64,000 nucleotides of DNA from an uncultured Pseudomonadota bacterium (GCA_963836235.1 CAWIIP010000004.1:199281-263280); one strand, 5' to 3'. Positions 1 to 37,598 are shown, counted from the first letter of the stretch. Numbers and translations: made by a program. Notes: a model not told the origin generated them from the letters alone.

Positions 1-109
1 AAAAGAGGGGGATCAGGTTCCTCCCACCAAATCCGTTCCTGAACCGAAACCCAAAACAAGTGGATTGAGCCACGGAGAAAATGCTTCCTAAGAAGGATTA
101 GTAATACTT

Positions 110-922
110 ATGAGCGATTTTCTTGAGATTAACGAAAACGAAGCCGAACATCTTGCATGGATTCACTCAAATAAATTTACGATTCCCGACGTCTTTCATC
201 AAAAATTTTTTAAGTCAAGTTACAGGTACGCTTGTCGAGTCCTCAGAAAATATTATCTAAAAAAAGGTTTTCTGAGTATGACAAAAGCAGAAGGGACAAC
301 CTTTCAAGATTCAATATATTTTCTTACGACAAACGCCTTAAGAAGTTTGGATTCCAAAAACAAAATCTTGGTTCGAGGGACAAAATTTCCGATAAAAGTG
401 AATCCTTATGAAAGGCAACATGATCTGATGGTTCAGGAGATTAGGGTTGCAATAGAGGCAAGCGAGGACTTATCCGATATATTTTGGGTAACGGATTTTG
501 AAATGCGGTCTGGAATAACCCCTTCCATTAAAGCCAGATTCGTTGAGGGAAAATTTGACAAAAACGAATGGAGGTCAAATGGTTTGAACCCCAACAGCAC
601 TGGCCGTAGAACACCTGATGGTTATTTCGAAGCGGATTTGGAGGGGCAGAGGGAGGGATTTACCCTTGAGTTTGAACATCATCCTTACGACGACAGAAAA
701 TTCAATCGAATGGCATGGTATTTAAAACAGTATTTTCCTAATGCTACAAAACTTGTCGTTTCCGCTAGCCGGGAGAATTCAATACGGATGATAAAAGCCC
801 TTCAAACAAAAATTAAAAGCGGGGAACAAGATAAGTGGTTTGTTACGGATTTTGAAAAAATTAAAACACTACCATTCAAGAAAATATGGCATCAACTTAA
901 CCATCCATTGGAGAAAGTGTAA
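110..922 (+). CDS. hypothetical protein, possibly replication-relaxation-like (wHTH) plasmid-type protein
   Basis: 270-aa ORF. Basic HTH-like stretch RVLRKYYLKKGFL. Motifs QHDLMVQEIRV, WVTDFE and PDGYFE...LEFE recall the replication-relaxation family. No nucleotidyltransferase GS..DxD motif seen. Confidence 0.3.
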   Translation: MSDFLEINENEAEHLAWIHSNKFTIPDVFHQKFFKSSYRYACRVLRKYYLKKGFLSMTKAEGTTFQDSIYFLTTNALRSLDSKNKILVRGTKFPIKVNPYERQHDLMVQEIRVAIEASEDLSDIFWVTDFEMRSGITPSIKARFVEGKFDKNEWRSNGLNPNSTGRRTPDGYFEADLEGQREGFTLEFEHHPYDDRKFNRMAWYLKQYFPNATKLVVSASRENSIRMIKALQTKIKSGEQDKWFVTDFEKIKTLPFKKIWHQLNHPLEKV

Positions 923-926
923 CGGT

Positions 927-1661
927 TTAATCTTTATCCCTTTTTATAAAAGCTATGCTTTCAAAAAGTCTAGAGGCGTAGGCGTCTGCTGGAATTTTTA
1001 CCCATGCTGGATTTATTTTAAGAATCCATAAAAAAATCAAAATGAGATCAAAAATAAATAAACCGGTTGTAATTTCTTTAATTGCAATTCCCCCACGTAA
1101 GTTTAAAGTTATTTCGAATAGTTGAAAAAAAGAAAGAGAAAATAGTATAAAAAGTGCAAAAGGTTTCATGGCCCACAGGTTCCGACGAAACCCATAACTC
1201 ACGTTTTCTGTAAAGAGGATCGAGAACTTTTTGGTGTCCCTGGTTCTTTCGATGAGGAAACGACAGAAGCTTTCGTAAATTTCATCTGCAAGTTGTGGAT
1301 TCTTATTTTCAAAAGCTTTTGTTAATTTTTTTCTAATTTTTAGGTTTTTAGAGAGTTCAGTTAAATATCGTTTGTGTGTTATGGGGTCTAGCCATGTGTT
1401 TCGGAATCTTAGAATGGATATACTTGGTTTTCCGGCCCACCTCTTAAATAACCAAGCTTCTTTTCGCTTTCCAGCATCGCGACCCGCTTCCCCTAAAAAG
1501 TGAATAATTCCGAATGAGGTAAGTATGGAGATAATGGATTTACGTTCAATCCAAAGCTCTGGGAACCTAATAATTAAAAAAAGGATTATGGGAAATAAAA
1601 CAATAAGGGAGGCCAAAAACCTAGCTTTATAGGCATAAAAGGCACTTGAAACAGTTGTCAT
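927..1661 (-). CDS. membrane protein, hypothetical
   Basis: 244 aa. N-terminal TM helix LASLIVLFPIILFLII and two C-terminal hydrophobic helices. Convergent with the upstream gene. Confidence 0.4.
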   Translation of the reverse strand: MTTVSSAFYAYKARFLASLIVLFPIILFLIIRFPELWIERKSIISILTSFGIIHFLGEAGRDAGKRKEAWLFKRWAGKPSISILRFRNTWLDPITHKRYLTELSKNLKIRKKLTKAFENKNPQLADEIYESFCRFLIERTRDTKKFSILFTENVSYGFRRNLWAMKPFALFILFSLSFFQLFEITLNLRGGIAIKEITTGLFIFDLILIFLWILKINPAWVKIPADAYASRLFESIAFIKRDKD

Positions 1662-1737
1662 TAGAACCTATTTTCATTGGGGTAAAAAATTAAAGGCGAC
1701 AAACCTATACCATAATATAACCATTTAAGGAGTATGT

Positions 1738-2817
1738 ATGCGTAGCATCACTTTTTTCCAGGCTGGCAATGGGAATTTTTCGCTTGTCCAAGCTGATAAC
1801 ACAAACATTTTGATGGATATGAAAAGCACCGAAGATAAGACCTCTTGGGAAATTGTGAAACCGTTTTTAAAGAAAGATGGAAAAAAATACATTTTGGACG
1901 TTCTTTCCGTATCGCATGGGGACCAGGACCATTGTGGTGGCTATACAGAGTTTCAAAAGTTAATGGATGAAGGAAAACTAGTAATCGGTTCTATTTGGCA
2001 CCCCGACTATGACCGCACTGAAGTTTCTGAAGAAGAAGAATTGCCTGAGGATTATCTTATGCTCCATAAAGAAATACTTCGGCGTCAAAAAATCAAAAAT
2101 CCTCAATTTGGGGAAATCCAAATACCTTTAACAACATTAGATGACGAAAAATCAGCTTTTAACGGTTTACAATTGCCCACTGATTTAAAACTGAAGGTTT
2201 TAAATCCTCATCATAAAGACCAAGGTGATACTGAGTGGGACGTAAATGATTCAAGTCTAGTAATAAAATTATCCATTTCCGGCTTAAGAGTTTTATTTAC
2301 TGGGGATTCGAGTTCGGAAGTTTGGCAAACAAGAATTATTCCTCTGACATTAAAGAAAAACGATAAATCAGATTGGGCAGAAGCTCAAATTTTAGTTGCA
2401 TCACATCATGGTTCTGCTACTTTTTTTGGCGTCGATAGAGAAACTGTTCTTAATGCCAAACCAACTCCTGAAAATTACAAGGCACTAGATTATATTAAAC
2501 CTGAATTTTTGGTTCTTTCTGCATCGACAAAATTTCCGACGAGTGGGGATGAATCTGGAGATCTACCCCCTCACTATGCGGCTTGGAAGTGGTATCACAA
2601 ATGGTTTAGAGAAAATAAGAATGTTAAGGAAAGCGATAACCATCCCGATTTGTTCAAATATACGGCTAATGGGCACGTTCGTTTGCAATTGGGCGACGAT
2701 AAAGAATGGAGATTTAAAGAAAATTGGACGCCTGATGATGATCCTGATAAAGGTAGCGATGTCCATTTTACAAATAAAGGCGGGGGAACTAAGCGCCAAG
2801 AATCAGGGTATGCGTGA
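1738..2817 (+). CDS. metallo-beta-lactamase-fold protein (ComEC/Rec2-type MBL, putative nuclease/hydrolase)
   Basis: HxHxDH-like motif SHGDQDHCGG and downstream ASHHGS motif typical of ComEC-like MBL domains. No signal peptide. C-terminus ...KRQESGYA. TGA stop 8 nt before the next ATG. Confidence 0.6.
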   Translation: MRSITFFQAGNGNFSLVQADNTNILMDMKSTEDKTSWEIVKPFLKKDGKKYILDVLSVSHGDQDHCGGYTEFQKLMDEGKLVIGSIWHPDYDRTEVSEEEELPEDYLMLHKEILRRQKIKNPQFGEIQIPLTTLDDEKSAFNGLQLPTDLKLKVLNPHHKDQGDTEWDVNDSSLVIKLSISGLRVLFTGDSSSEVWQTRIIPLTLKKNDKSDWAEAQILVASHHGSATFFGVDRETVLNAKPTPENYKALDYIKPEFLVLSASTKFPTSGDESGDLPPHYAAWKWYHKWFRENKNVKESDNHPDLFKYTANGHVRLQLGDDKEWRFKENWTPDDDPDKGSDVHFTNKGGGTKRQESGYA

Positions 2818-2825
2818 ATTGAATA

Positions 2826-4634
2826 ATGACTTCTTTCCCTCCCGGCCTTTCAGAGGCAATTCAAAAAGGTTTATTAAAAGCTGCTTCAACACAATGTTGT
2901 GAATTTATTTCTGAAATTCGGCCTTCGACTAATGAGGGCTATTTTGAAATAGAAGCCATAATTGGTCCTGCGGATGTACCTCTAGGTTCTAGCCCACCAA
3001 AATATAAGGTCCGTTTTTTAATACCAAAATCCTTCCCATATGACGTAATAGAGACCGTTCCCTTAGACCCAGCGTTAAAGTGGAACCAGCACCAATTTGC
3101 TGATGGAGATTATTCAAGGGCGAATATTATTTGTCCCCCGTCATTAAATAATATACCTGCTGAAGCATTATTCTTCCCTTATATCGAACATGCCTATAGA
3201 TGGATTACTGATTGTTTATCGGGGACGCTCATAAAACCATTGGAAGATTATGAATTTCCGCATTTGGGGGAGGAGCCTAGAGGCAACTTCAATTTTTATA
3301 TTGATATAGACAATTTTCCCCATTCATGGATTTCAAAAAATAAATTTGGTATGGCCTGGACCACTGAAATAAACGGAAGTAAATCAGGAAAGCTTTATCG
3401 TGTAAGGGAACTTGAGGCAATAAACCCGCTTGAAGGCCCCAAAAACATAGAATCCAGCATACGAGACAATTGTTTTGTTAACGGGGAAACAAAGGGTTGG
3501 ATTCCATGGATTTTCGGTGGCAATCCAGTCTTTAAAGTTCCACATCAACGTTTTCAAAAGCTTTCGGAATTTAGCTTAGAGTTTAGAGATGAATTTTTAA
3601 ATGCTTGTAAAAATGTAATGGAAAAACAGTTTACTTTGCCGTATTTACTTTTAGCGTTTGAGATCCCACTTAAATGGTCGGGTACACCAAACAGAATATA
3701 TTGGACTGCAATGAGTTTGAAGAAATTTAATGGTTCTTCATTTAAGTGTCCTCCGGGTTTTCGTCCGAAGACCTCTGATTTCAAAACGTGGCCTAATGTT
3801 ACTCAATTTTTTAGAGAAAACAATCCATTGTTACTAAACCATTGCGAAGATATTTCTCCTAACACAATGACATTGAGGAGCGGAGAAGAAAACGTGGATA
3901 TGAAGTCGAAAAAAATTGTTATTGTGGGTGTTGGTTCGCTTGGTTCAATGTTAACAAAATCGATCTCGAAATTAAGCCCGGCTAAAATCAAATTGATTGA
4001 CAGTGGAAGGATTGAACCGGGTAATTTAATTCGGCACGAGGCATTAACTTCTCAAGTCGAGGAATTTAAAGCTGATGCAATGAGAATGTTAATAAAACCA
4101 ATGTTTAAATCCTCTGAGGTGGTTTCCCTCGCGATTGATATTGTTTCTGGTTTGCCAAAATTTATTGAAGCTATTGCTGATACTGACTTAATACTTGATT
4201 GTACTGGAGACGCTGGTTCAAATTATATGTTGCTAAGTAATTCAAAATTTTTGACTCACAAAGTAGCAATCGCATTTATTAAACCCGGACCTGCTTTTGG
4301 GGTTTTAATTTTGAAAAACCCCGGCCTTAATATTTCTCCCCGCGCCTGTATTGATAAACTTAAAGAAGGAATTCCGGCAGATGTTTGGGAAAGATATAAC
4401 AGTTCAGATTCTACGGAAAGCCAAGAAGTAAGAACTGCACCTGGTTGCTATTCAACTACCTTTTCCGCCCCTTATTATAGAATTAGATTGTTGGCCGATA
4501 TGTTTCTTGCATCTATTCTTGGATGGTTGAATGGGGGAGCTTCCTCTAGTTTTATTTTATTGTTTGACCAAGTTGTTTCCGAAAGTGGATTAGGCGTAGA
4601 TATTAAACGCTATGAAGTAAAAATTAATGATTGA
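2826..4634 (+). CDS. E2-like/E1-like fusion protein (Cap2-like ubiquitin-transferase-like enzyme)
   Basis: N-terminal UBC-like core (KYKVRFLIPKSFPYD ... HQFADGDYSRANIICPPSL, candidate catalytic Cys). C-terminal ThiF/MoeB-type Rossmann domain (KIVIVGVGSLGS) with a downstream Cys (PGCYSTT). 8-nt overlap with the next gene. Confidence 0.6.
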   Translation: MTSFPPGLSEAIQKGLLKAASTQCCEFISEIRPSTNEGYFEIEAIIGPADVPLGSSPPKYKVRFLIPKSFPYDVIETVPLDPALKWNQHQFADGDYSRANIICPPSLNNIPAEALFFPYIEHAYRWITDCLSGTLIKPLEDYEFPHLGEEPRGNFNFYIDIDNFPHSWISKNKFGMAWTTEINGSKSGKLYRVRELEAINPLEGPKNIESSIRDNCFVNGETKGWIPWIFGGNPVFKVPHQRFQKLSEFSLEFRDEFLNACKNVMEKQFTLPYLLLAFEIPLKWSGTPNRIYWTAMSLKKFNGSSFKCPPGFRPKTSDFKTWPNVTQFFRENNPLLLNHCEDISPNTMTLRSGEENVDMKSKKIVIVGVGSLGSMLTKSISKLSPAKIKLIDSGRIEPGNLIRHEALTSQVEEFKADAMRMLIKPMFKSSEVVSLAIDIVSGLPKFIEAIADTDLILDCTGDAGSNYMLLSNSKFLTHKVAIAFIKPGPAFGVLILKNPGLNISPRACIDKLKEGIPADVWERYNSSDSTESQEVRTAPGCYSTTFSAPYYRIRLLADMFLASILGWLNGGASSSFILLFDQVVSESGLGVDIKRYEVKIND

Positions 4635-5223
4635 AAAACCAAGTAGCAATTACAGTTTTAATTTTAAAACAGGCAGTCTCGAAGTGCATTTATCAAATTC
4701 TTTAATAGGTCAGCTAAGTCGTTTATCGAAATCCGCTTTGCCTAATGAAACTGGCGGAACTCTTCTGGGCTATTACAATGATTCAATGAAGATTGCAAAT
4801 ATTACTGAAATTTTGAAATCTGCCGGAAAACCCAAATCAACTCCAACTTCTTTTATTAGGCCAAGTGATACCAAGGAAACTGAGTCAAATAGAAGAATTT
4901 TGGCTTCACGTGGGCGTCTTTTTTATTTAGGCGAATGGCATTCACATCCAAAAGGGCCACCTTATCCAAGCCCTAATGATTTAATGTCTTGCTTTGAATT
5001 AGTTAAATATTCCAGAGTCCCGACCGAAACACCAATAATGCTTATAATTGGAAATGATCTGTCTGCTAATGTAAACAATATGGCTTGCTGTCTATTGGTG
5101 GCGAAAAAAGGCGCATGCGAAATTCAAAGAGCAGAAAGAATAAACGAACCGATACCACTTAAGAACCAAAGAAAACTTCGATTATTTACCAACGTAAAAC
5201 TGCGAAAAAAATTGCATCTTTAA
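4627..5223 (+). CDS. JAB/MPN+ (JAMM) metalloisopeptidase, Cap3-like
   Basis: JAMM motif GEWHSHPKGPPYPSPNDL (E..HxH..S..D). ATG overlaps the upstream stop (ATGATTGA). Confidence 0.7.
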   Translation: MIEKPSSNYSFNFKTGSLEVHLSNSLIGQLSRLSKSALPNETGGTLLGYYNDSMKIANITEILKSAGKPKSTPTSFIRPSDTKETESNRRILASRGRLFYLGEWHSHPKGPPYPSPNDLMSCFELVKYSRVPTETPIMLIIGNDLSANVNNMACCLLVAKKGACEIQRAERINEPIPLKNQRKLRLFTNVKLRKKLHL

Positions 5224-5268
5224 TCGAATAAGAATTAGAACCAAGTACGATTACGGGAGGTGTAAGGA

Positions 5269-5958
5269 ATGTGCGTTTGTTACCAGCTAAACCTTCCCAT
5301 TAAAAACATCGCAAAGGCCTTCAAGGCAAAACCGCCCAAAGTGACCTGGAATCCCTTGGACAAAATCCGGCCTTCCAACCTGGTTCCCGTGGTTATGGTT
5401 AATCCTCCAACAGGGGAGAGGGTTATTAAGCTAATGACGTGGGGAATGCCTTTTTACGATTTTCAAAAAAAGAAATTGGTTAAGCACCACCTCTTTAACG
5501 CTAGGTCCGAAACCATCACCGAAAAGAAAACCTTCAAAAGCCACTTCCAAAAGGACCGTATCTTGGTTCCGGTTTTTCCCGCCTTTGTTGAATGGCAGGA
5601 CACCGGAGAAAAGCGAAAGAAGCCTTATGTGATTGGCCTAAAATCGAATGAGCCCTTTGCTTTTGCGGGTATATGGGGGAAATGGAACATGACCATCGAG
5701 GACGACGAAACCATCGAAAAGAAGTTGAAGGCAAATCCCAAGTATGTCCCGAAAAAAGAGGAAATCGAGTATTACTCAGTTATCACGACAACCCCAAACG
5801 AAGTAGTGGCTCCTATTCACAACCGTATGCCTTGCATTCTGGACTCCCGGAACTACGATGCTTGGTTGGACCCCAAAATTGACCCGGAGATACTCAGACC
5901 CCTTTTGAAGCCCTTCCCAGCCGAGAAGATGCAAGCTAAACCAACGGGGAAAACCTAA
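5269..5958 (+). CDS. SOS-response-associated peptidase (SRAP/YedK/HMCES family) abasic-site processing protein
   Basis: Cys at position 2. Motifs HHLFNARSETI, ILVPVFPAFVEW, FAFAGIWGKW and HNRMPCIL match the SRAP family core. Confidence 0.75.
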   Translation: MCVCYQLNLPIKNIAKAFKAKPPKVTWNPLDKIRPSNLVPVVMVNPPTGERVIKLMTWGMPFYDFQKKKLVKHHLFNARSETITEKKTFKSHFQKDRILVPVFPAFVEWQDTGEKRKKPYVIGLKSNEPFAFAGIWGKWNMTIEDDETIEKKLKANPKYVPKKEEIEYYSVITTTPNEVVAPIHNRMPCILDSRNYDAWLDPKIDPEILRPLLKPFPAEKMQAKPTGKT

Positions 5959-5995
5959 AAAAAGAATATTCGATTTATAGAGAAAGCTTTATTTT

Positions 5996-6304
5996 ATGAA
6001 GAAAAAAAGTTCCTCCCAAAAAGATCTATTCAATCAAGAACCAGAAAATCCCGATATGGTTCGTTTTATTAAACGAGATCGTAAATGGTCCCGTGAAATT
6101 CGTGAGTTGATTGCCACCACATCTTGTCCTCATTGTGGTTCTCGAAAAATCACTTACTTTGAATGGGGCCAAGGCGGTTTTGGACCAGAACACGATAAGC
6201 TGGTAGCGGAAGACCTTCTCATCCAGAGGGGTTGCATCATGCAGAAGGATGAACCGGAATTTACCTGCCGCGATTGCAAAAAGAATTTCTCTAAAAATCC
6301 TTGA
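5996..6304 (+). CDS. zinc-ribbon protein, hypothetical
   Basis: Two CxxC pairs (CPHCG ... CRDCK). 102 aa. Confidence 0.35.
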   Translation: MKKKSSSQKDLFNQEPENPDMVRFIKRDRKWSREIRELIATTSCPHCGSRKITYFEWGQGGFGPEHDKLVAEDLLIQRGCIMQKDEPEFTCRDCKKNFSKNP

Positions 6305-6313
6305 AGTAGGCGT

Positions 6314-7018
6314 TTGAATATGAAAATGAAATTTGCTCTCGTAAATGAAGAACGATTGGAGCCCCAGCCGGGCCTCAAAGGTAAGTGTTTCCTTTGTGAA
6401 AAACCCGTAGTTGCGAAGTGCGGAAAGATTAGGATTCCGCATTGGGCTCACCTTGGAAAGCTCGAATGTGACCCCTGGTGGAAGAACAAAACTGATTGGC
6501 ATATTGATTGGCAAAATAAATTTCCTAAGTCTTGGCAGGAATTTGTTCACCAAGCCACAAACGGTGAAAAACACTTTGCTGATGTAAAAACAGACCAAGG
6601 TTGGGTTCTTGAATTCCAACATTCCTTCATCAAACCGGACGAAAGAAATTCACGAAATAACTTTTACCCAAAAATAGTTTGGGTTGTAAACGGAATGAGG
6701 CGGAAGAATGACCTAAAGAAATTTTTTGAAGTTGTAAAAAATAATGGTAAACAACTCAACCCAAAGGCACCAATATTGAAGTTAATGGGTTACTGGGATG
6801 AGTCTGCTCTTCTTCGTGACTGGGCGGATAGTCCTGTGCCAGTATTCTTTGATTTCGGAGGAACTTCAGACCTTTGTTATTTACTTCCCAAGAGTGCCGA
6901 TGGATTTCCTGATGTTGTATGGTTCCCACGAACGTACTTCCTTGAACTATTTCTGAATGGGGCACAGAAAGTCAAAGATATGAACTTTTGGTTTTCGGAT
7001 TTTATATCGGGCAATTAG
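6314..7018 (+). CDS. CoiA-like competence/nuclease family protein
   Basis: N-terminal Cys pairs plus HWAH. Core EKHFADVKTDQGWVLEFQHSFI resembles the CoiA family. Confidence 0.5.
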   Translation: MNMKMKFALVNEERLEPQPGLKGKCFLCEKPVVAKCGKIRIPHWAHLGKLECDPWWKNKTDWHIDWQNKFPKSWQEFVHQATNGEKHFADVKTDQGWVLEFQHSFIKPDERNSRNNFYPKIVWVVNGMRRKNDLKKFFEVVKNNGKQLNPKAPILKLMGYWDESALLRDWADSPVPVFFDFGGTSDLCYLLPKSADGFPDVVWFPRTYFLELFLNGAQKVKDMNFWFSDFISGN

Positions 7019-7471: not shown

Positions 7472-8947
7472 TTGAAAATCCTCATCGACACCAACATCGT
7501 TATTCCTCTTGAACCGGCATCCACAGGCGACTTAGAGCCGGGTACCATCCTTGCCGCTGAATTTCATCGTTTGGCCGCCAAAGCGGGTCACCAGCTATTC
7601 ATCCATCCCTTAATCCGACTGGATATTGATCGTGACCGCGATAGTGCTCGGGCTGACCTGCGTCGACAGTTAATTGGGAAATATAGCCAGTTAAATAACC
7701 CCCCAACCATTATTCAAAGACCGATTCCGCCATTAGAGGCACCTGCCCAAGATAGTAATGATTGGGTTGATGTAAACCTATTGGTGGCATTGGACTCTAA
7801 TGCCGTGGATATATTGGTGACCGATGATGAAGATATCCATCGGAAGGCCTTGAAGGTTGGTTTGCAATCCAAGGTTGCGCGACTGCCAGATATGGTGGCG
7901 TCGCTAAAAGACCTGTTTGATAAGGTTCATGAGCCGCCACCGGCAGTTGACTTCACTGAAGCTTATACTTTGAACGAGAGCGACCCGATATTTAATAGCG
8001 TGAGAGAGAGCTATGGAGCTGAGTTTGATCCTTGGTTACAGAAATGCAAGGCCCAACATCGGCACTGTTTTGTCATTCAGGATAAGTCGGCGGGAAAGTA
8101 TGTCGGTGTGGCTATTCTGAATAGAGAAGATGGCGCTTATGGTCTTGTGGGGAAGACCTTAAAACTCTGTACTTTTAAAATAGCGGACGAATATGGTGGG
8201 TACCGATACGGGGAATTGTTGTTGAAAGCTGTTTTTGATTATGCGGTAAACAACCAATACGATGGCGTATTTGTAACGGCTTATCCTGACAAAGATCGTT
8301 TGATTCGAACGTTTCAAGATTTTGGGTTTCAAATTGTTGAGCAAGGTGCCCAAGTGGTTCTTGTGAAGCGATTCACTTATACACGGGCTGAATACGATTT
8401 GGTTGAACCGCTAGTTTTCCATACTCTTTATGGGCCGATGGCGACTAAATTTGAGGGAAACAACACTCACATTGTCCCAATTCAGCCGGAATTTCATAAG
8501 CTCTTGTTCCCGGAATATGAACCACAACCCGAACTGTTCCCAGGCCAGCATCCCTGTGGGAACAGTATCAAGAAGGCTTACCTGTGTCATTCGGCTACCC
8601 GTCAATTAAAACCAGGGGATAATCTTTTGTTCTATCGGTCCGAGGATGATAAAGCGATAACAGCGGTGGGAATCGTTGAGGAGTTCATTGTTTCTTCTTC
8701 TGCGGATGAGATTGCCCAATATGTAAGCACAAGAACGGTCTATTCTTATGATGACATTAAAGCTATGTGCGAAACGGAAACATTGGCGATTAAATTCCGA
8801 CTTGTTAAAATCGTTAAGCCGGTTATCCCGCTTAAGGACTTAAAGAAAAATAAGGTGGTAAAAGAACATCCGCAGGCTATTCACAAGATTAAAACAGGGA
8901 GTGCTGAATGGGTAAGAGAAGCGACGAGCCTTCAACCGAAGTATTGA
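7472..8947 (+). CDS. PIN-like / GNAT acetyltransferase / ASCH (PUA-like) three-domain protein
   Basis: TTG start. N-terminus ILIDTNIVI with acidic residues (DWVDV, LVTDDEDI) reads as PIN-like. Middle GNAT-like (GVAILNREDG ... YGGYRYGELLLKAV ... FQDFGFQ). C-terminus PUA/ASCH-like (KPGDNLLFYRS ... AITAVGIVEE). Confidence 0.5.
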   Translation: MKILIDTNIVIPLEPASTGDLEPGTILAAEFHRLAAKAGHQLFIHPLIRLDIDRDRDSARADLRRQLIGKYSQLNNPPTIIQRPIPPLEAPAQDSNDWVDVNLLVALDSNAVDILVTDDEDIHRKALKVGLQSKVARLPDMVASLKDLFDKVHEPPPAVDFTEAYTLNESDPIFNSVRESYGAEFDPWLQKCKAQHRHCFVIQDKSAGKYVGVAILNREDGAYGLVGKTLKLCTFKIADEYGGYRYGELLLKAVFDYAVNNQYDGVFVTAYPDKDRLIRTFQDFGFQIVEQGAQVVLVKRFTYTRAEYDLVEPLVFHTLYGPMATKFEGNNTHIVPIQPEFHKLLFPEYEPQPELFPGQHPCGNSIKKAYLCHSATRQLKPGDNLLFYRSEDDKAITAVGIVEEFIVSSSADEIAQYVSTRTVYSYDDIKAMCETETLAIKFRLVKIVKPVIPLKDLKKNKVVKEHPQAIHKIKTGSAEWVREATSLQPKY

Positions 8948-9411
8948 TTTCGATTTACCAGAAATATGCGGAAGCCATATTGAAAGGTGAGAAAATCATT
9001 GAATTTCGCAAAGCGCAATTCCCAAAAAACGTATCCCGTGTCTATCTATATTCCACGAGCCCCGTTCAAAAGGTCATCGGTCATTTTGATGTAAAAGACG
9101 TTCTTCGAGCTAGTCCTCGGAGTTTGTGGAACGAATACGGGAAACATGGCTCGATCGGTTATGCTGATTATGTTAATTACTATGGAGACGCGGAAGAGGC
9201 TTGTGGAATACTTGTTAAGAGTGTCGTTCGATATTTGCGACCGGTGGATTTAAAGGAAATTGATCCCTCAATGTCGGTACCACAAAGTTATCGTTACCTT
9301 ACTGAGGATCTTATTGAAAAGCTGGAAAGTAAATCTTTAAAAAATCGATCAAGCTATTTTTCACGAATAGTTTCCTCTGCATTTGGATTGGGAAAGATGT
9401 TTGCGAGGTAA
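8908..9411 (+). CDS. ASCH domain protein
   Basis: ISIYQKYAEAILKGEKIIEFRK ... RVYLYSTSPVQKVIGHFDVKDV is an ASCH-type beta-barrel signature. Overlaps the upstream gene end. An alternative TTG start at 8944 would give a 4-nt overlap. Confidence 0.55.
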   Translation: MGKRSDEPSTEVLISIYQKYAEAILKGEKIIEFRKAQFPKNVSRVYLYSTSPVQKVIGHFDVKDVLRASPRSLWNEYGKHGSIGYADYVNYYGDAEEACGILVKSVVRYLRPVDLKEIDPSMSVPQSYRYLTEDLIEKLESKSLKNRSSYFSRIVSSAFGLGKMFAR

Positions 9412-12906: not shown

Positions 12907-14718
12907 ATGCTCTTCCCTTTGGAAATATCAGCCCTAACCTTTCTTAGTGGTTTGTTATTTTGGCGGCTTTACATTTATTACAGCACTCCTATTTTAGGTG
13001 ATGGGAGCTTTTTCCAGGACTCCAAGGACTTTATGAAAGAAGAATTTCATAGGGTCTTCAAAATCGAGATTAACAGCGTGGGTTTGGATAACCCGCCACC
13101 GTTAAAGAAAAAGGATGGGTTAGTTATTCCTTCAGCGGTAGGTGAAGCTGGTATCTATGCGGCATCAATTATCCATAATTTATTAAGTGTAGATCGAGCG
13201 GTTTTGGATACTGCTACTCAACTATCCCATCAAACAATTAAAAATGTTTCAGATCTTCATACAGCAATAGGTGATTACAGCCATACCTTGGATGGAGGAG
13301 CCACCCAATCCGTGGTCAAATTCTTCGAAGGCCACTTAGGGGAGCAATTGGTAGCCAATCATGTGGAACATCTCGGAGCCCAAGTGAATTTCCCCGAGAT
13401 GTCAAACCAGGTTGGTTATGACTTTCATCTAAATGGAATACCCGTGAATGTGAAAACTATTGCGGACGCTAATAACCTCGCCGAACATTTTGCTAAATAT
13501 CCAGACATACCGGCTGTCGTTCCTTCCGACGCGATGCACATACCGCATGACGCGATTTATTTGAACCATGCTGATTCGATCGATCATTTCGTCAATGCTT
13601 ATCACCAAGGGCTTAACCATATTGTTCTAGTTGATTCTGGTTTATCGAATGTAGATGCTGTTCACCACGCAGGGAGCGCTTTGGATGCTGCTTCAGGAAA
13701 TTTTGACATCCATTGGCCGTGGGTAACAACAGTCCTATCGACAGTTAGGGAAATAGAGCTCTTGGATAAAAACTATACGACTTTTAAAAACTCTATTAAA
13801 AACATTGCATTGGATGCATCTGGCACTGGTATTGGAGCTGCGGCTGGTGCCAAACTTGGTGGTTTATTTGGTATGGCTATTTTTGGGCCGATAGGAGCCG
13901 CTGTGTTTGTGGTTTTGGGTGCTATTGCCGGAGGAGTCGGTGGTAGGACTGGAACGAATGCTATTAAATACAAAGAGTTCAATGACTTAAATGATCGATT
14001 TGAAGCCTTAAGAATGAGTGCACCAGGAAAGATGGAACACATCAAATCTACAACGGAAAATAAGATCGATTCCCATGTGTTAGAAAAGCAAAACGAACTT
14101 AAAAATTATTCCCTTGAGTTGGAAACAAAAATCAATGAGGAAAGGGAAGCTGTTAAAAAGAATGTGATTGATAAGTCGTCGCTTGAAGTTGAACATTTAC
14201 ATAAATTGAAACAAAAGTTCATAGAGGAGGTTAATTTAGAGATTACCGATCTTTCAGCTAAAATGAATGAGATCCCATTACTCCACAGAATCTTTCCGAA
14301 TAAAAACACAACTCTTTTGGTAAAGACTCGAAGATTCTTGATTTGGAAAGTAAACGGAATTAATAAAAGATTTAATCGGGTTATTCAAAGTATTAAACCC
14401 AGTGGTCTTACGGTTGGTGAGGCTGTCTCGCTTTTTTCGATACTTGCTGAGTTCAAATCCGCAAGCTCAGATGTCCATGGATATGTTGCCGAATTACAGA
14501 AAGACAGAGATAAAGCATTAGCGGCATATTCGAAACTTACTCAACGTTGTATTGATAACCTGGCAATCAAACGAAAACACATTATTGATGGGTTAGCGGT
14601 TTTTACAAAAAGGGAAATGGATGAAGCCAATTCTAGAGTTTTAAGAGTTATTGAAGACTTGAAGTCTGTCCAGGACAGTCTTGTTAGGGAGGGGAAAAGA
14701 CAAGGTCTTATTCAATAA
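12907..14718 (+). CDS. glycine-zipper membrane protein, hypothetical (possible toxin/effector-like)
   Basis: 603 aa. N-terminal TM. Central Gly-zipper GIGAAAGAKLGGLFGMAIFGPIGAAVFVVLGAIAGGVGG. C-terminal coiled-coil region. Confidence 0.4.
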   Translation: MLFPLEISALTFLSGLLFWRLYIYYSTPILGDGSFFQDSKDFMKEEFHRVFKIEINSVGLDNPPPLKKKDGLVIPSAVGEAGIYAASIIHNLLSVDRAVLDTATQLSHQTIKNVSDLHTAIGDYSHTLDGGATQSVVKFFEGHLGEQLVANHVEHLGAQVNFPEMSNQVGYDFHLNGIPVNVKTIADANNLAEHFAKYPDIPAVVPSDAMHIPHDAIYLNHADSIDHFVNAYHQGLNHIVLVDSGLSNVDAVHHAGSALDAASGNFDIHWPWVTTVLSTVREIELLDKNYTTFKNSIKNIALDASGTGIGAAAGAKLGGLFGMAIFGPIGAAVFVVLGAIAGGVGGRTGTNAIKYKEFNDLNDRFEALRMSAPGKMEHIKSTTENKIDSHVLEKQNELKNYSLELETKINEEREAVKKNVIDKSSLEVEHLHKLKQKFIEEVNLEITDLSAKMNEIPLLHRIFPNKNTTLLVKTRRFLIWKVNGINKRFNRVIQSIKPSGLTVGEAVSLFSILAEFKSASSDVHGYVAELQKDRDKALAAYSKLTQRCIDNLAIKRKHIIDGLAVFTKREMDEANSRVLRVIEDLKSVQDSLVREGKRQGLIQ

Positions 14719-14901: not shown

Positions 14902-15372
14902 ATGACCACCCATGCCCACTATGTCGGCTCCGTCGAAGAATACGAAAACCTCATCCTGACCCTCGTTCTGCCCCCGGTCCAGTGCGGGGCTCCCGGCCCA
15001 CCGGAGTCCTACAAGGAGAAGCGCATCCAATTAAGCGACTTGGTGGATCACCCCTACGCCTCTTACCTCTGGATTGCCTCCGGGGATTCCATGATCGGGG
15101 CTGGCATCCATTCGGGGGATTTCCTTTTGGTCGATAAGGCACTCATCCCCATCCCCAACGATATCGTCATCGCCGCCCTCAATGGGGAGGCAACCGTCAA
15201 GCGGCTCAGTATCCAGGACAAGAAAGTTCTCCTCATTCCCGAAAACCCGGAATTCAAACCCATCCCGATTGACCCCGAAGAAGGGGTCCATATGCTCGGT
15301 GTCATTACCTATACCATCCATCCCTTGAGAGGTTCCAATGGAGTACGTCGTCGCATTGGTCGATTGCAATAA
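14902..15372 (+). CDS. umuD: UmuD-like S24 peptidase (LexA-like autoprotease; translesion synthesis accessory)
   Basis: ASGDSMIGAGIHSGDFLLVDKAL and IVIAALNGEATVKRL carry the Ser/Lys dyad context. N-terminus PVQCGAPGPPESY resembles the UmuD cleavage region. GGAGG RBS. Confidence 0.7.
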   Translation: MTTHAHYVGSVEEYENLILTLVLPPVQCGAPGPPESYKEKRIQLSDLVDHPYASYLWIASGDSMIGAGIHSGDFLLVDKALIPIPNDIVIAALNGEATVKRLSIQDKKVLLIPENPEFKPIPIDPEEGVHMLGVITYTIHPLRGSNGVRRRIGRLQ

Positions 15373-16609
15373 TTTCTTTGTCTCCTGTGAGCGTGCCTTT
15401 AACCCCCGACTTTTCAAGAGGCCGGTCGTTGTGCTTTCCAACAACGACGGCCTGGTCATAGCCCGCTCAAACGAAGCTAAGGCCTTGGGTTTCAAGATGG
15501 GTGACGCTGTGTTCTTGAAACGGGATCTGATTAAAGAACACAACGTCATAGTCATGTCCTCGAACTACGCCCTGTATTTCGACATGCGCGACCGGGTGAG
15601 GGAAGTGTTTTCTCTCTTTACCCACAGGCTAGATAAATACTCCATCGATGAATGTTTCCTCGACCTGTCCGGCATGCCCCATGAGGAATTAGAGGGGTAT
15701 GGACGGCAGATCAAGGAGATGGTGGAAAGATGCACAGAGATACCGGTGTCGGTGGGTATCGCCGGAACCAAAAGTTTGGCAAAACTCGCAAACAAGATCG
15801 CCAAGAAATCCGATAAGGCGAAGGGAGTTGTGAACCTTTTTAAATCCCCTCACTTGGAAAGAGCCTTGGCCCAAACCGATGTGGGTGACCTATGGGGTGT
15901 GGGACCGGCTTACGAAAGGATGCTCAAAGAGAACGGCATTAACAACGCCCTGGAATTCAGGAACGCCCCGGAACATTGGGTGAGGGCCAGGATGACAGTC
16001 ATGGGGGCCAGGATTCAAACCGAACTGAAAGGGACCGAGTGCTTTCCCTTGGAACTGCTACCACCGCCCAAAAAGATGATTGGTACGGCCCAAGGTTTTG
16101 GAGCCCTTATCGAATCCCTGGAAGAAATGAGGGAGGCCGCGGCGACCAGGGCATCCGAGGAGGCGGTGAAGCTCAGGGTCGAGAAGCAATGCGTGAAGGA
16201 ACTGACCGTCTGGATTCAGACCAACACCTTCAGCCCTGAACCCCAATATGGGGAAGCCCGGACGGTGGTATTCCCGGTGGCCACCAACGACACCTCGACT
16301 CTGATCCGGTATGTGGTGGCCGTGGTGGAGGCCCTTTACAAGAGGGGCTACCGGTACAAGAGGATAGGATTGAACGCCGACAAGTTGGAACCGGAGGACG
16401 CCGTTCAACAACATTTGTTCCTCAGGCCTGAGGATGCCCGGAGGCCTGTCCTGATGAGGGTCATTGACCAATTGAATGAGGTCAAAGGGGCCGGCACGAT
16501 CAGAATGGCGGCGGTGGGGATTAACCAAAGGTGGCTGACCAAGTTCGAACACCAGTCACCGCACTACACGACAAGACTCAGGGACTTGCCCATCGCAAGA
16601 GTCTGTTGA
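15338..16609 (+). CDS. umuC: Y-family DNA polymerase V catalytic subunit UmuC
   Basis: N-terminus ALVDCNNFFVSCERAFNPRL...PVVVLSNNDGLVIARSNEAKALG is the UmuC/DinB-type signature. 423 aa. Confidence 0.85.
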   Translation: MEYVVALVDCNNFFVSCERAFNPRLFKRPVVVLSNNDGLVIARSNEAKALGFKMGDAVFLKRDLIKEHNVIVMSSNYALYFDMRDRVREVFSLFTHRLDKYSIDECFLDLSGMPHEELEGYGRQIKEMVERCTEIPVSVGIAGTKSLAKLANKIAKKSDKAKGVVNLFKSPHLERALAQTDVGDLWGVGPAYERMLKENGINNALEFRNAPEHWVRARMTVMGARIQTELKGTECFPLELLPPPKKMIGTAQGFGALIESLEEMREAAATRASEEAVKLRVEKQCVKELTVWIQTNTFSPEPQYGEARTVVFPVATNDTSTLIRYVVAVVEALYKRGYRYKRIGLNADKLEPEDAVQQHLFLRPEDARRPVLMRVIDQLNEVKGAGTIRMAAVGINQRWLTKFEHQSPHYTTRLRDLPIARVC

Positions 16610-18683: not shown

Positions 18684-19565
18684 ATGAAAAGAAATATCGC
18701 AGAGGAAATCACCAACCGGATTTTAGAGGACTTGGAAAAAGGCGTCACGCCTTGGGAGAAGCCCTGGAAGGCAGGGCGGGGGCTACCCCTGCCCCTCAAC
18801 GCCAGCACCGGGAAGCACTACCGGGGAATCAATGTCTTTGTCCTTTGGGATCAAGCCATAGCGAAGGGCTATTCCACCCCCTCTTGGGTGACTTTCAACC
18901 AAGCCAACGGACTTAAAGGCCACGTCAAGAAAGGCGAGAAGGGAACCGACGTTGTTTTTTACAAGCCGATTTCCAAAACCAAGAGCTTAAACCTTGAGGA
19001 CGAGGTTTTGGTGGACCAGCAGACCTTTTGGGTTCTTCGAACCTACACGGTTTTTAACCTGGACCAAGTGGACGGACTTGACCACCTAAAACTGAAACCC
19101 GAACCGATGGAACCCTTTGTGGCCATCGAGGAAGCGGACGGGCTTTTGATTGATTCGGGAGCCGAGATTATCCACGCCCCTATTGACCAAGCCTTCTATG
19201 ACCGCAAGAAGGATTTCATCACTCTTCCCTTGAGGGAGAGCTTCGTGAGCCGGGAGAGTTTTTACGGGGTCGCCCTCCACGAGGTCACCCACTGGACCGG
19301 ACATTCGACACGGTTGAACCGGGAATTCGGGAAGCGGTACGGGGACCAAGCCTACGCCTTTGAGGAACTGGTGGCCGAAATGGGAGCGGCTTTCCTTTGC
19401 GCTACTTGCGGCATTCCTTACGCTACCCGGCATTCCAACTACATCGGGGACTGGATTCAGGTTTTGAAGGACCACAAGCGGGCCATCTTCACGGCGGCGG
19501 CCAAGGCCCAAGCCGCCATGGATTTTGTTTTGAAAAGAACGGGTGAGGAGGCGGCGGTGGCTTAA
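18684..19565 (+). CDS. ardC: ArdC-like antirestriction protein (N-terminal ssDNA-binding domain + zincin HExxH metalloprotease-like domain)
   Basis: ITNRILEDLEKGVTPWEKPW...YRGINVFVLW is an ArdC-N-like start. C-terminal HEVTHWTGH (HExxH). Typical plasmid/ICE gene. Confidence 0.75.
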   Translation: MKRNIAEEITNRILEDLEKGVTPWEKPWKAGRGLPLPLNASTGKHYRGINVFVLWDQAIAKGYSTPSWVTFNQANGLKGHVKKGEKGTDVVFYKPISKTKSLNLEDEVLVDQQTFWVLRTYTVFNLDQVDGLDHLKLKPEPMEPFVAIEEADGLLIDSGAEIIHAPIDQAFYDRKKDFITLPLRESFVSRESFYGVALHEVTHWTGHSTRLNREFGKRYGDQAYAFEELVAEMGAAFLCATCGIPYATRHSNYIGDWIQVLKDHKRAIFTAAAKAQAAMDFVLKRTGEEAAVA

Positions 19566-20528: not shown

Positions 20529-23156
20529 GTGCCTAAATATTTACGGCTCTACAACCAATTTGTTAATTTCGTAAAAATGGTGGAGAAAGAATTAACTACC
20601 GATTACGAACGTAAACTCATCAATCTAATTTTGGAGGATTTTGACGCGATAAAGGACAAGAAAGCCACCAAGGGTTTGCGGGGGAAACACCTTTACGAGT
20701 TGATTAAGAAAAAAGGAAAAAGTGTTTCGCCTACGATCACGGTTTCTTCGACTAACACTCAGTCAGGTGGGTTTTCTTTCGTCGGTCTTGATTCCATTGT
20801 GGTAGAACATTTTCGGGGGTTCTCCGAAAAAGAGACATTCAAATTCGACCGTCCATTCACGTTTGTCTTCGGCCCAAATGGAAGCGGTAAATCCAGCCTC
20901 TGTGAAGCGCTCGAATTCTCCATGCTTGGATACATCCAGGAAGCAATAGCCAAAGATATCGACGTCCAAGAGTACACGACCAACTGTTTCGATGAAAAGC
21001 AAAGTGATCCCGTCCTTAAGGCAAAGGATGCATCGGGGAATATCATCGACATTTCCCAGAACCAAGACTTGCAATTCTGTTTCATAGAAAAAAGCCGGAT
21101 CGAAAGCTTTGCAAGGATTTCAGCAAACACCCCGAAAAAGATGGAGGAGCAACTCGCAACATTGTTTGGCCTGGATGAGTTCAACGAATTTGTCGGAGAT
21201 TTTAACAAGAAGGTTGACGATTATTTTGAAATGGATTCTCTTAAGGCAAGGGAATATGAGGCCAAAAGCGCCGGGATGCCGGGCATTAGGGAGAACCTGG
21301 AAGGGGAAAAAAAGAAGAAGGGGGAAGCAGAAGCCAAGATTGCTGAAATTGTAAAAAACTCCGGGATTCCCTCGGTGGGGGATTTCGAATTTGCGTTTGT
21401 AAGCCCGAAAACAGGAACTAAGACCAAACTGGAAGAAATGAGCGAAAAACTTTCAGCGCCGACGTCCCAATCTCTCGTTTTTCCAACGGTTATCAAAATA
21501 GTGGAGGATATCAAGGCGGCGAAAACCGCTTTGGTTCCGCTAACCGCAATTCGGAGCCAGTTGACCTCCCGCAAAAAAGAATTCCAATTCCGCGATCTTT
21601 TCGAAGCTGCGTCCGTAGTTGAAACTTTATGGACAGAATCCTGTCCCCTGTGCGAAACGCCAATGGATGAAGTCCACAAACATCCATACGACAACGCCCG
21701 TGCCAAACTGAAGGAACTGGAGACACTTGCCGCTTTTGAAAATCAGGAAGAAAAAGATTATGAGATATTTTTGGAAAAGATAGACGCCATGGATAAATCC
21801 ACCGAATCTTTCAACGCTGTCCTGGTCTCCAATGGGAAAGATTCCTTTCAGTTCGACGCCATCCCTTGGCCCGGGAAGAACAGGGCGGACAGGGATCTTG
21901 CCATTGCACACCACGAAACGGTTGAAATATTTACAAACCAAAGAATGAAAGAATTGGTCGAGGCGGAGGCTTCATTAACAGCAATTAATTCCAAGATTCA
22001 AGACGAAATGAAAGCAAAAGCCGTTCTTCGGGCTGAATACGAACGGCTAAAAATTGAAAAAGACAGTTATATACAAGAAAAAGCTAATGTGAAAAATTGC
22101 GATGACCGAATCCAACAAGCGGAAAAAACGATTGCAACTTTTGAAGCCGAAACAGCCACTCTGAAAGCAGAGGTCCAGTCAGAAAAGGAACGTATTGACC
22201 AAAATAAACTATGGCTTTCGGCTTACGATAGCTTTAAGGAAAAGCTCGACGTCTATAAAGATCAACTACCCCTCAGGTACGTACAAAAACTCAGCGAGCT
22301 TACGTGTTCGATCTACAACCAATTAAATCAGCATGACCGGGAATATGAAAAGGCGTTATCAATTGATCTTCCTAAAACCACTGCCGATTCCATCAAGATA
22401 GAATTCGCCAAAAATCCCGGTTCTAAATTTGATGCCTTGCTTGTATTAAGCGAAGGGCATCTGCGGTGCTTAGGGCTCTCGATACTCATGGCGAAGAACA
22501 TTGATGACAATTGCCCGGTGATAATTTTTGACGATGTGGTTAATGCAATCGACGACGAACATAGGAGCGGAGTGGCCGACCTCCTCTTTGAATTTGATCG
22601 GTTGCGGGGTAAACAGATAATACTAACGACCCACGCTGAACATTTCATATCCGACCTTCAATTGAAAGTGCCGGCCCAGAACAAGAAGGATTTGATTCAT
22701 GTCTATAATTTTCAATCAGATGAAAAAAGGCGGAAAATAAATATTGATTCCAAATCCCGGAATCATCTTGAACGCGCCGATGAACATTATTCCGACGGAC
22801 GAATGGACGATACGCTTCATAGCTGTAGGTTGGCACTTGATAACATTGCCGAGGCTTTATGGAAAAGACTATGGAAAAAGGGTTATGCCGCAACAATTAG
22901 GGTTCCTCTAAGAGAACTCCATGCCAAGCCGGATACAAAAAATGCCATCGAAGCATTGAAATCCTTCATCAAGACTAAGAATGTTACTGAATTTATAGGG
23001 ACTGATGAGCATTTTGAGTATTTGTTACAGGAGGATGTCTGGAGCCAATTTAATATTGCTTCTCATGAAATGGGAGGTAAACCGACTTTCAACAACGCCA
23101 TCATTAAGGAAATTGTGGGTAGGTGTTATAAGATCGATGCGATTGTAAAAAGCTAA
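20529..23156 (+). CDS. SMC/Rad50/SbcC-like ABC ATPase with zinc-hook-like CPLC motif
   Basis: Walker A FGPNGSGKSS. Long coiled-coil with a central CPLC (Rad50-hook-like). Signature LSEGHLRCLGLSILMA. Walker B/D-loop IIFDDVVNAIDDEH. Extra C-terminal domain of about 170 aa. Confidence 0.65.
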   Translation: MPKYLRLYNQFVNFVKMVEKELTTDYERKLINLILEDFDAIKDKKATKGLRGKHLYELIKKKGKSVSPTITVSSTNTQSGGFSFVGLDSIVVEHFRGFSEKETFKFDRPFTFVFGPNGSGKSSLCEALEFSMLGYIQEAIAKDIDVQEYTTNCFDEKQSDPVLKAKDASGNIIDISQNQDLQFCFIEKSRIESFARISANTPKKMEEQLATLFGLDEFNEFVGDFNKKVDDYFEMDSLKAREYEAKSAGMPGIRENLEGEKKKKGEAEAKIAEIVKNSGIPSVGDFEFAFVSPKTGTKTKLEEMSEKLSAPTSQSLVFPTVIKIVEDIKAAKTALVPLTAIRSQLTSRKKEFQFRDLFEAASVVETLWTESCPLCETPMDEVHKHPYDNARAKLKELETLAAFENQEEKDYEIFLEKIDAMDKSTESFNAVLVSNGKDSFQFDAIPWPGKNRADRDLAIAHHETVEIFTNQRMKELVEAEASLTAINSKIQDEMKAKAVLRAEYERLKIEKDSYIQEKANVKNCDDRIQQAEKTIATFEAETATLKAEVQSEKERIDQNKLWLSAYDSFKEKLDVYKDQLPLRYVQKLSELTCSIYNQLNQHDREYEKALSIDLPKTTADSIKIEFAKNPGSKFDALLVLSEGHLRCLGLSILMAKNIDDNCPVIIFDDVVNAIDDEHRSGVADLLFEFDRLRGKQIILTTHAEHFISDLQLKVPAQNKKDLIHVYNFQSDEKRRKINIDSKSRNHLERADEHYSDGRMDDTLHSCRLALDNIAEALWKRLWKKGYAATIRVPLRELHAKPDTKNAIEALKSFIKTKNVTEFIGTDEHFEYLLQEDVWSQFNIASHEMGGKPTFNNAIIKEIVGRCYKIDAIVKS

Positions 23157-37228: not shown

Positions 37229-37591
37229 ATGAAAAAAAGAAACTTTATCAATTCTATAAAGCAGGTAGGGATGACGGGCTATCTCCTCATTCTTGCGGAT
37301 AAGGCCAATGCACAAGCGATTACCAGTATGCCGGAACTTTCCCCGATAAAACTGATGATCCTTTTTGTACTGGATGCTTATGGGGTTTGGAAACTATTGC
37401 AATGCGTTAAGAACGTCTTGGATCACCTCGCCGATTCAAGTAAGGGTGATCCGGCGGCTAAAGATCGGATTTGGGGAAGCGTTCTGGCTTTCATCGGGAT
37501 ACTTATGGTGGGGGTAATGGTCAATGTTTTAATTCTCAAAGCGGGAGAATTTGGGGCGAGGCCGGTTAGTTCTGTCCTGTCCGGGAATTGA
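37229..37591 (+). CDS. TrbC/VirB2-like T4SS pilin (putative)
   Basis: Long signal peptide ending ANAQA, then two hydrophobic helices separated by a short polar loop. 120 aa. Position upstream of VirB6-, VirB3- and VirB4-like genes. Confidence 0.4.
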   Translation: MKKRNFINSIKQVGMTGYLLILADKANAQAITSMPELSPIKLMILFVLDAYGVWKLLQCVKNVLDHLADSSKGDPAAKDRIWGSVLAFIGILMVGVMVNVLILKAGEFGARPVSSVLSGN

Positions 37592-37598
37592 TCCATTC

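Follow-up and report, generated by a model that had tools for sequence, protein, structure and literature searches.

What does a bacterial E2-E1 ligase conjugate when the operon that encodes it holds neither a nucleotide cyclase nor a ubiquitin-like protein? The question is raised by a three-gene operon in a 64,000-nucleotide stretch of DNA from an uncultured Pseudomonadota bacterium (GCA_963836235.1, CAWIIP010000004.1:199281-263280; hereafter the window). Its genes encode, in order, a metallo-β-lactamase (MBL)-fold protein of the ComEC type (gene 1), a fusion of E2 and E1 domains resembling Cap2 (gene 2) and a JAB metallopeptidase resembling Cap3 (gene 3). Cap2 and Cap3 are accessory proteins of type II CBASS (an antiphage signalling system based on cyclic oligonucleotides). 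As judged from its sequence, the operon is a divergent member, in a sister subfamily, of the known 6A-MBL or 'type II MBL' class. Its best explanation is probably a four-gene 6A-MBL system, completed by a divergently transcribed membrane-protein gene, in which the Cap2-like ligase and the JAB peptidase would control a conjugated MBL.

The three open reading frames lie on the plus strand with the boundaries first given for them (Table 1). Read off the sequence, genes 1 and 2 are separated by an 8-nt gap (TGA attgaata ATG) and genes 2 and 3 overlap by 8 nt (ATGATTGA), so that the three coupled genes described in the first-pass annotation are borne out, as are all the motifs it quoted, each at a verified residue position. 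An AAGGAG ribosome-binding site lies 7 nt 5' of the MBL start codon. The single promoter-like match near the MBL gene (1646-1674, plus strand) is weak evidence, since the scan for promoters and terminators did not rise above chance in the window (9 found, 15.4 expected). All other open reading frames of at least 60 residues in positions 1-6000 overlap called genes; the operon thus has no free coding space and contains no gene for a ubiquitin-like protein.

This arrangement had been taken to differ from all described systems, a view refuted by the literature and by existing protein models. Iyer, Burroughs and Aravind (2006) already listed the combination of an MBL with E2, E1 and JAB domains as operon type 6a, next to a type 6b that is now type II CBASS. 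A 2026 review credits van den Berg et al. (2024) with experiments in Pseudomonas aeruginosa that confirmed '6A-MBL' to be an anti-phage component, and a 2025 preprint counts 6A-MBL among the known defence systems against jumbo phages. The gene order of the window operon, with an MBL gene adjacent to E2, E1 and JAB domains, is that by which 6A-MBL is recognised, and all three proteins have 6A-MBL models as their best NCBIfam matches. Gene 1 matches NF058524 (6A-MBL_enzyme; 1.4e-31, 110 bits, curated cut-off 220 bits). Genes 2 and 3 both match NF058523 (6A-MBL_cap2_3; cut-off 320 bits): residues 268-599 of gene 2 align to profile positions 213-531, the E1 part (7.7e-31, 107 bits), and gene 3 to positions 538-664 (1.3e-26, 93 bits).

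Because these scores fall far under the cut-offs, we place the operon in a sister subfamily and do not regard its proteins as equivalogs of the 6A-MBL models. The MBLs of plasmid-borne 6A-MBL operons from Acinetobacter, Hymenobacter and Aeromonas pass NF058524 at 318-443 bits, and the window MBL is about 25% identical to them over 82-88% of its length. The fused ligases of Acinetobacter and Hymenobacter likewise pass NF058523 (538-553 bits), whereas the split Cap2-like protein of Aeromonas reaches 64 bits although its MBL passes.

Gene 2 has an E2 core joined through a linker to a ThiF-type E1 domain. The latter matches ThiF in Pfam (8.3e-13; the precomputed Pfam annotation gives Cap2_linker and ThiF), and residues 119-587 match the PADLOC model of the CBASS E1-E2 protein (2.7e-34). 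Cap2 of Enterobacter cloacae (7TO3) is the best match in the PDB by sequence (1.3e-19), by profile (3.2e-31) and, for the predicted structure, in Foldseek (4.8e-25). In a model of gene 2 alone, a helix, a four-stranded meander, a loop and a long helix surround Cys103, which is the topology of a UBC domain. His89, Asn100 and Cys103 of the E2 domain are invariant in six homologues of 36-55% identity, as are Gly368, Gly370, Gly373, Ser374, Arg403, Lys415, Asp458 and Gly540-Cys541-Tyr542 of the E1 domain.

Gene 3 matches Prok-JAB in Pfam (1.9e-16) and the JAB model of PADLOC (2.1e-32); the peptidase 9ILD in the PDB also matches (1.4e-7), and the JAMM motifs of the two proteins align. The motif is intact in gene 3, with Glu41, His105, His107, Ser115 and Asp118 all present. 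The catalytic residues of E2 (His, Cys), of E1 (glycine loop, Arg, Asp, Cys) and of the peptidase are therefore all in place, and the resemblance to Cap2 and Cap3 noted in the first-pass annotation, together with its E2-E1 and JAMM assignments, is upheld by these matches.

For gene 1, Pfam returns Lactamase_B alone and below threshold (3e-4). The assignment comes from structure: the AlphaFold model (predicted local distance difference test, pLDDT, 86; predicted TM-score, pTM, 0.87) has the MBL domain of ComEC (9IC4) as its top Foldseek match (2.7e-14), with a profile match of 3.2e-7. The protein carries SHGDQDHCGG (residues 59-68), SHHGS (222-226) and a C-terminal ESGYA (355-359), and its metal ligands His60, Asp62, Asp64, His65, His88, Asp190, His223 and His224 are invariant among 31 homologues. 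Its PADLOC matches are to MBLs from Lamassu, DRT and Avs1 modules (1.6e-15 to 3.3e-11) and, at only 7.6e-5, to PDC-M48B. Related defence MBLs such as HamM and those associated with Avs are DNases that stay latent until proteolytic activation. Since gene 1 matches models of HamM- and Avs-type DNase MBLs, DNA is its most likely substrate, and we predict that it is a nuclease.

A survey of MBL homologues for synteny with E2-E1 and JAB genes had been proposed, and one was carried out. The subfamily is rare, with about 75 close homologues in a word search and, among 1.84 billion representative clusters, 20 at E ≤ 1e-30 and 436 at E ≤ 1e-10. We collected 53 loci from genomes and metagenomes and classified their open reading frames against reference proteins. 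The gene after the MBL gene is of E2 type in all 42 readable loci, being an E2-E1 fusion in 16 and a stand-alone E2 in 26 (L002, L005-L011, L088-L102, L107, L110, L113). Of the 11 other loci, nine break off less than about 200 nt from the MBL gene; in one the MBL reading frame is disrupted, and in one the MBL is followed by a reading frame that, judged by eye only, resembles a transposase. A JAB gene follows in every E2-E1 locus with enough DNA 3' of the ligase gene. As the order MBL, E2-E1, JAB recurs in 16 other loci, with E2-E1 proteins 28-55% identical where measured, the layout is more than a chance assembly. The stand-alone E2 proteins have 135-250 residues and match CBASS E2 models at 1.9e-23 and 3e-38.

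The C-terminus of the MBL is suggestive of conjugation. Residues 338-359 have pLDDT values below 50 and are predicted to be disordered; the last two residues are fixed among homologues, while the 20 preceding ones vary. MBLs of the E2-E1 class stop exactly at [YF]A in 15 of 17 cases, the other two carrying 2-3 extra residues. In 24 of the 26 E2-only MBLs, an aromatic residue and Gly (twice Ala) precede 1-5 final residues. Among 81 broader relatives of 340-400 residues, [YFHW][GA] occurs within the last seven positions in 62, and canonical plasmid-borne 6A-MBL proteins end in ...QPAYA, ...PHGAS and ...SGYGAEAI. The longer, protease-associated relatives (about 420-450 residues) have no such aromatic-Gly/Ala end. 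A flexible tail with a selected small last residue is what an E1 needs, and this supports, rather than proves, handling of the MBL through its C-terminus. To judge by their titles, the solved complexes 7TSQ and 7TSX show Cap2 handling the cGAS/DncV-like nucleotidyltransferase (CD-NTase) by its C-terminal tail.

The tails of the two classes differ in a further respect. The MBLs of the E2-only sister clade, which has no E1 and no JAB nearby, always have 1-5 residues beyond the aromatic-Gly/Ala pair, and those of JAB-encoding operons mostly end exactly at Ala. In these sequences, extra residues where JAB is absent are the opposite of what a simple trimming of a precursor by JAB would predict. One E2-only locus (L008) has a gene for an LRAT/NlpC-P60-like peptidase just upstream.

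Taken together, conjugation of the MBL is supported by its universal linkage to an E2-type gene (42/42), by its conserved C-terminus, by the absence of a ubiquitin-like gene and by the intact catalytic residues of the ligase and peptidase. The proposal that the MBL takes the place of the CD-NTase and is handled through its C-terminus thus fits both the signature and the linkage; that it is conjugated we infer from them. Three points weigh against this reading. All three proteins stay well below the curated 6A-MBL cut-offs. The gene 2 model is of moderate quality (pLDDT 66, pTM 0.44), because its alignment held six full-length relatives, obtained in word-index searches, and both catalytic loops are of low confidence; for the candidate Cys541, such a loop is in keeping with a mobile E1 cysteine. 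Finally, a text from the Corbett laboratory, in which this architecture stands beside type II CBASS and Pycsar under the name 'MBL pathways', asserts MBL conjugation by analogy. MBL operons go unmentioned in the Cap2 preprint.

The third of these points would also suit an E2-E1/JAB pair acting on some other substrate (a protein of the host or of the phage, or a ubiquitin-like protein whose gene lies elsewhere), with an MBL that is co-encoded and never conjugated. Some stand-alone E2 partners occur without an E1, which agrees with such a scheme and means that E1-type activation of the MBL is not universal in the family. Yet an aromatic-Ala/Gly end on a disordered tail is kept across the subfamily and in the wider 6A-MBL class, where a plain hydrolase has no obvious reason to keep it, and no β-grasp gene was recognised in or beside the operon in the window or in any of the 16 siblings, those with precomputed Pfam annotation (L071-L074) among them. 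We consider this alternative very unlikely.

The genes 2 and 3 matches to PADLOC CBASS models, and the fact that only 1.7 kb of DNA is visible upstream of the operon, could be accommodated by a type II CBASS of the ordinary kind, its CD-NTase located a little beyond the window or lost, and its nuclease effector being the MBL. Scans argue strongly against this. No cyclase or SMODS match was obtained with Pfam or PADLOC among the window proteins between 110 and 9411 (ten flanking the operon), and no CD-NTase is present near the system in L071-L074 (precomputed Pfam annotation, 5-8 kb on each side) or among the four scanned neighbours in L004. The closest sibling, L071, has a layout like that of the window and nothing cyclase-like upstream. 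Further, the E2-E1 and JAB proteins score higher on the 6A-MBL models than on CBASS Cap3; gene 3, for instance, prefers the JAB part of NF058523 (1.3e-26) to NF050170 (7.8e-8). On the flanks, siblings and neighbours scanned, we reject an ordinary CBASS as extremely improbable, and the earlier observation that the visible neighbourhood holds neither a CD-NTase nor a ubiquitin-like gene agrees with these scans and with the lack of free coding space.

The gene immediately upstream of the MBL, which is read in the opposite direction, had been regarded as an unrelated flank. The survey overturns this. Homologues of its membrane protein adjoin the MBL gene in 13 of the 17 E2-E1-class loci (window included), and several E2-only loci have one after the E2 gene. 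In L071 the homologue is 61% identical and occupies the same divergent position, and in P0024/L074 the membrane protein is read in frame with the MBL. The protein has hydrophobic segments at its N- and C-terminal ends with a soluble middle between them, and conserved residues at Tyr9, Glu68, Gly77, Pro79, Leu84, Tyr156 and Arg160. Profile comparisons with hhalign connect it to the type found in L072 and L073 (98.7%, E 3e-16), and that type to PDC-M48A of PADLOC (94.5%, E 8e-8). PDC-M48A itself follows the MBL and E2 genes in eight sister loci, and a patatin-like phospholipase is the third gene in eight other E2-only loci. The earlier statement that the neighbourhood lacks a canonical effector is consequently doubtful, as the slot of the membrane protein is filled in sister loci by patatin, a classic CBASS effector type.

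Such exchange of the third gene between membrane protein and patatin, present in 22 of 26 E2-only and 13 of 17 E2-E1 loci, is typical of effector swapping in CBASS-like systems. It invites a three-tier pathway, in which the MBL, occupying the position of the CD-NTase, would be a conjugation-primed upstream sensor or a maker or processor of a signal, and the membrane protein or patatin would kill by membrane damage; 'signaling enzymes' is also the term by which the Corbett laboratory text names the conjugated proteins. The canonical Acinetobacter and Hymenobacter plasmid operons, however, have no membrane-protein or patatin third gene, so that the MBL must suffice there, and the homologous MBLs of other defence systems are terminal DNase effectors. 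Moreover, no signal-binding, SAVED, STING or other receptor domain was recognised in the membrane protein with Pfam, PADLOC or NCBIfam, and a membrane-protein gene is absent from the upstream DNA available for L081 and L084. We regard a three-tier pathway as the main alternative, though an unlikely one. A small membrane-protein gene is present in the 6A-MBL operon of Aeromonas too. Given the recurrence of a membrane-protein or patatin partner, the two-gene accounts of 6A-MBL in print may be incomplete.

In the four-gene system that we favour, the E1 domain would bind the flexible C-terminal tail of the MBL and adenylate the carboxylate of Ala359. The MBL would then pass as a thioester from Cys541 of E1 to Cys103 of E2 and be joined to a target amine, which could belong to another protein, to the MBL itself or to the membrane partner. 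The JAB peptidase would remove conjugates and so keep the system quiet in uninfected cells, like Cap3 in type II CBASS. Conjugation would prime or relocate the MBL, a putative ComEC-type two-metal phosphodiesterase that, like the related MBL effectors in Hachiman, Avs and Lamassu modules, is most likely a DNase. The membrane protein might act alongside the MBL, either as an anchor or as a co-effector that damages the membrane. Ala359, Cys103, Cys541 and the JAMM motif are the key sites to which the idea of the MBL as substrate points.

A bolder extension, prompted by the conserved partner genes and put forward here as a speculation with the odds against it, is that 6A-MBL-type systems, rather than simple pairs of ligase and nuclease, are membrane-directed pathways, in which the Cap2-like enzyme attaches the C-terminal Ala or Gly of the MBL to the membrane partner or to a lipid. 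In autophagy-related conjugation, Atg7 and Atg3 attach Atg8 to a membrane lipid. Attachment of either kind would bring a ComEC-like nuclease to the membrane, at the site of phage DNA entry, or would switch on an effector of membrane or patatin type. The E2-only sister clade would then represent a variant with a mechanism of its own. To our knowledge, a membrane target and a logic of this kind have been described for no Cap2-type system.

Several sibling loci show additional genes around the system. A second, shorter MBL paralogue (272-356 residues) lies beside it in L071 (3667-4488), L072 (6224-7042) and L076 (8483-9553), and such a paralogue is also found in L006, L093 and L098; the copy in L076 matches PDC-M48B of PADLOC at 7e-153. 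It thus seems that a physical link, and perhaps a functional one as well, exists between PDC-M48 and 6A-MBL-type modules. The visible flank of the window contains no second MBL gene. In three unrelated metagenome-assembled genomes (L009-L011), a cassette of MBL, E2 and PDC-M48A is inserted in a type I restriction-modification operon, with hsdS on one side and hsdR on the other, and sibling loci lie in type I restriction-modification operons or adjoin AbiE, AbiL, PDC-S11 or PDC-S32. In L084 (2683-3589), two genes come before the MBL operon, an XRE-type helix-turn-helix gene and one that, by its motifs only, resembles ImmA/IrrE-type metallopeptidases, a pair similar to the CapH/CapP-like regulators known from CBASS and other defence operons.

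Table 1. Features of the window, with positions counted from its first letter
Feature	Position	Strand	Remarks
Multi-pass membrane protein, 244 aa, divergent; candidate membrane effector or anchor	927..1661	-	Recurrent fourth component
Intergenic region, 76 nt; presumed promoter region	1662..1737		Between divergent membrane-protein and MBL genes
Gene 1, MBL-fold (ComEC-type) metallo-hydrolase, 359 aa	1738..2817	+	Predicted E2-E1 substrate; predicted phosphodiesterase/DNase
Metal-binding motif HGDQDH (His60, Asp62, Asp64, His65)	1915..1932	+	Invariant in 31 family members
SHHGS motif (His223/His224), distal metal ligands of the MBL fold	2401..2415	+	Invariant alignment columns
Disordered 22-residue C-terminal tail, ...TKRQESGYA	2749..2814	+	Predicted adenylation/conjugation site Ala359
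Gene 2, Cap2-like E2-E1 fusion, 602 aa	2826..4634	+	N-terminal UBC-like domain, linker, C-terminal ThiF/Atg7-type adenylation domain
Candidate E2 catalytic Cys103 in ANIICPPSL (residues 99-107)	3132..3134	+	Low-confidence loop of model
E1 nucleotide-binding glycine loop VGVGSLGS (367-374)	3924..3947	+	Aligns with loop IIGAGSLGS of 7TO3
Candidate E1 catalytic Cys541 in PGCYSTT (539-545)	4446..4448	+	Predicted; low-confidence loop 529-548
Gene 3, Cap3-like JAB/JAMM metallopeptidase, 198 aa	4627..5223	+	Prok-JAB; translationally coupled to gene 2
Upstream JAMM Glu41 in NETGG (40-44)	4744-4758	+	
JAMM zinc motif HSHPKGPPYPSPND (His105, His107, Ser115, Asp118)	4939..4980	+	HSHP...SPND, residues 105-118
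SOS-response-associated peptidase (SRAP)	5269-5958		6e-47
Small zinc-ribbon protein	5996-6304		
CoiA-like protein	6314-7018		
GNAT acetyltransferase with EVE domain, PDC-M11 A	7472-8947		PADLOC 2.9e-169
ASCH domain, PDC-M11 B	8908-9411		PADLOC 1.1e-40; overlaps preceding gene
Multi-pass membrane protein, 281 aa	9674-10519		Inside island
603-aa protein	12907-14718		Inside island; no Pfam or PADLOC match
UmuD/UmuC-like genes	14902-16609		
ArdC anti-restriction/zincin gene	18684-19565		
SMC-type ATPase	20529-23156		Best PADLOC match Lamassu LmuB, 3.5e-26
HNH protein	26408-28027		Second low-GC block
Type IIG restriction-modification enzyme	28087-31308		5.1e-77; second low-GC block
TrbL/VirB6 and TraG/VirB4-like conjugation genes	37551-42367		

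The operon lies in a stretch of low GC content (37-40%, about 50% elsewhere), with GC climbing after about position 5000; a second low-GC block (24-32 kb, about 37%) holds the HNH and type IIG genes. Defence and mobility genes nearby include PDC-M11 A and B, the LmuB-like ATPase, the type IIG enzyme, UmuDC, ArdC and conjugation genes. The operon shares its low-GC island with PDC-M11, the LmuB-like ATPase, the type IIG enzyme and conjugation genes, and its setting is thus one of defence. No tRNA genes lie in the window. It has the look of a segment of an integrative conjugative element or of some comparable mobile region. PDC-M11 A and B form a separate candidate defence system 2.2 kb downstream of the operon.

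Neighbouring genes were also considered as parts of the system. The SRAP, zinc-ribbon and CoiA-like genes were rejected, as they stand beside no sibling system and GC rises after about position 5000. The gene at 110-922 (270 codons) was rejected too, since no homologue lies beside any sibling. Its product weakly resembles MobC and replication-relaxation proteins (NCBIfam 1.8e-4; BLASTP 3e-6 to a Replic_Relax protein encoded close to the system of L074). Both L073 and L074 have Replic_Relax genes in the vicinity of the system, but by sequence the protein encoded in the window is not conserved with it.

Among known systems, type II CBASS is similar in its Cap2-like E2-E1 fusion, in a separate Cap3-like JAB gene that overlaps the end of the ligase gene and in a substrate-like protein that comes first in gene order and whose C-terminal tail is disordered. 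Sister loci extend the likeness with an E2-only 'short' form and with effectors of membrane-protein and patatin type. In contrast to CBASS, the window has no CD-NTase and no recognisable cyclic-nucleotide receptor domain, and the protein predicted to be conjugated is a putative hydrolase and no nucleotide cyclase. The Bil and Bub systems also bring bacterial E1, E2 and JAB chemistry to defence-type islands, but they have a dedicated β-grasp ubiquitin-like protein and separate E1 and E2 proteins; no such ubiquitin-like protein is encoded here.

The protease-activated MBL modules (HamM of Hachiman, Avs1a/Avs2, Lamassu and DRT) share with the operon a homologous ComEC-type MBL fold, a separate MBL gene 5' of its regulator and, presumably, a latent enzyme with a post-translational switch. 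Their regulator is a trypsin-like protease, whereas here it would be an E2-E1 ligase with a JAB peptidase, and neither Pfam nor PADLOC found a trypsin match in the genes after the MBL. PDC-M48 is related through the membrane protein, which belongs to the PDC-M48A superfamily by way of an intermediate group; the window protein has no direct match to PDC-M48A, however, and a PDC-M48B gene is absent from the window.

The closest relative is 6A-MBL itself. Both encode an MBL-fold protein directly upstream of E2, E1 and JAB domains, both MBLs have an aromatic-Gly/Ala C-terminus and both are carried in mobile elements and defence islands. The window operon differs in that E2-E1 and JAB are two genes, where the defining model describes a single triple-module protein, and in that a membrane-protein gene is a regular partner in its subfamily. 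The 6A-MBL member on Aeromonas plasmid pBY3, with a split Cap2 and JAB, resembles the window operon in this respect. Little about the operon is new in kind when it is viewed as an instance of 6A-MBL. Its subfamily, being split and below the model cut-offs, will nevertheless be missed by annotation pipelines, and adding it to the models would widen the detection of 6A-MBL-type systems. The comparative data lend concrete support to the idea of the MBL itself as the ubiquitin-like substrate of the Cap2-like ligase.

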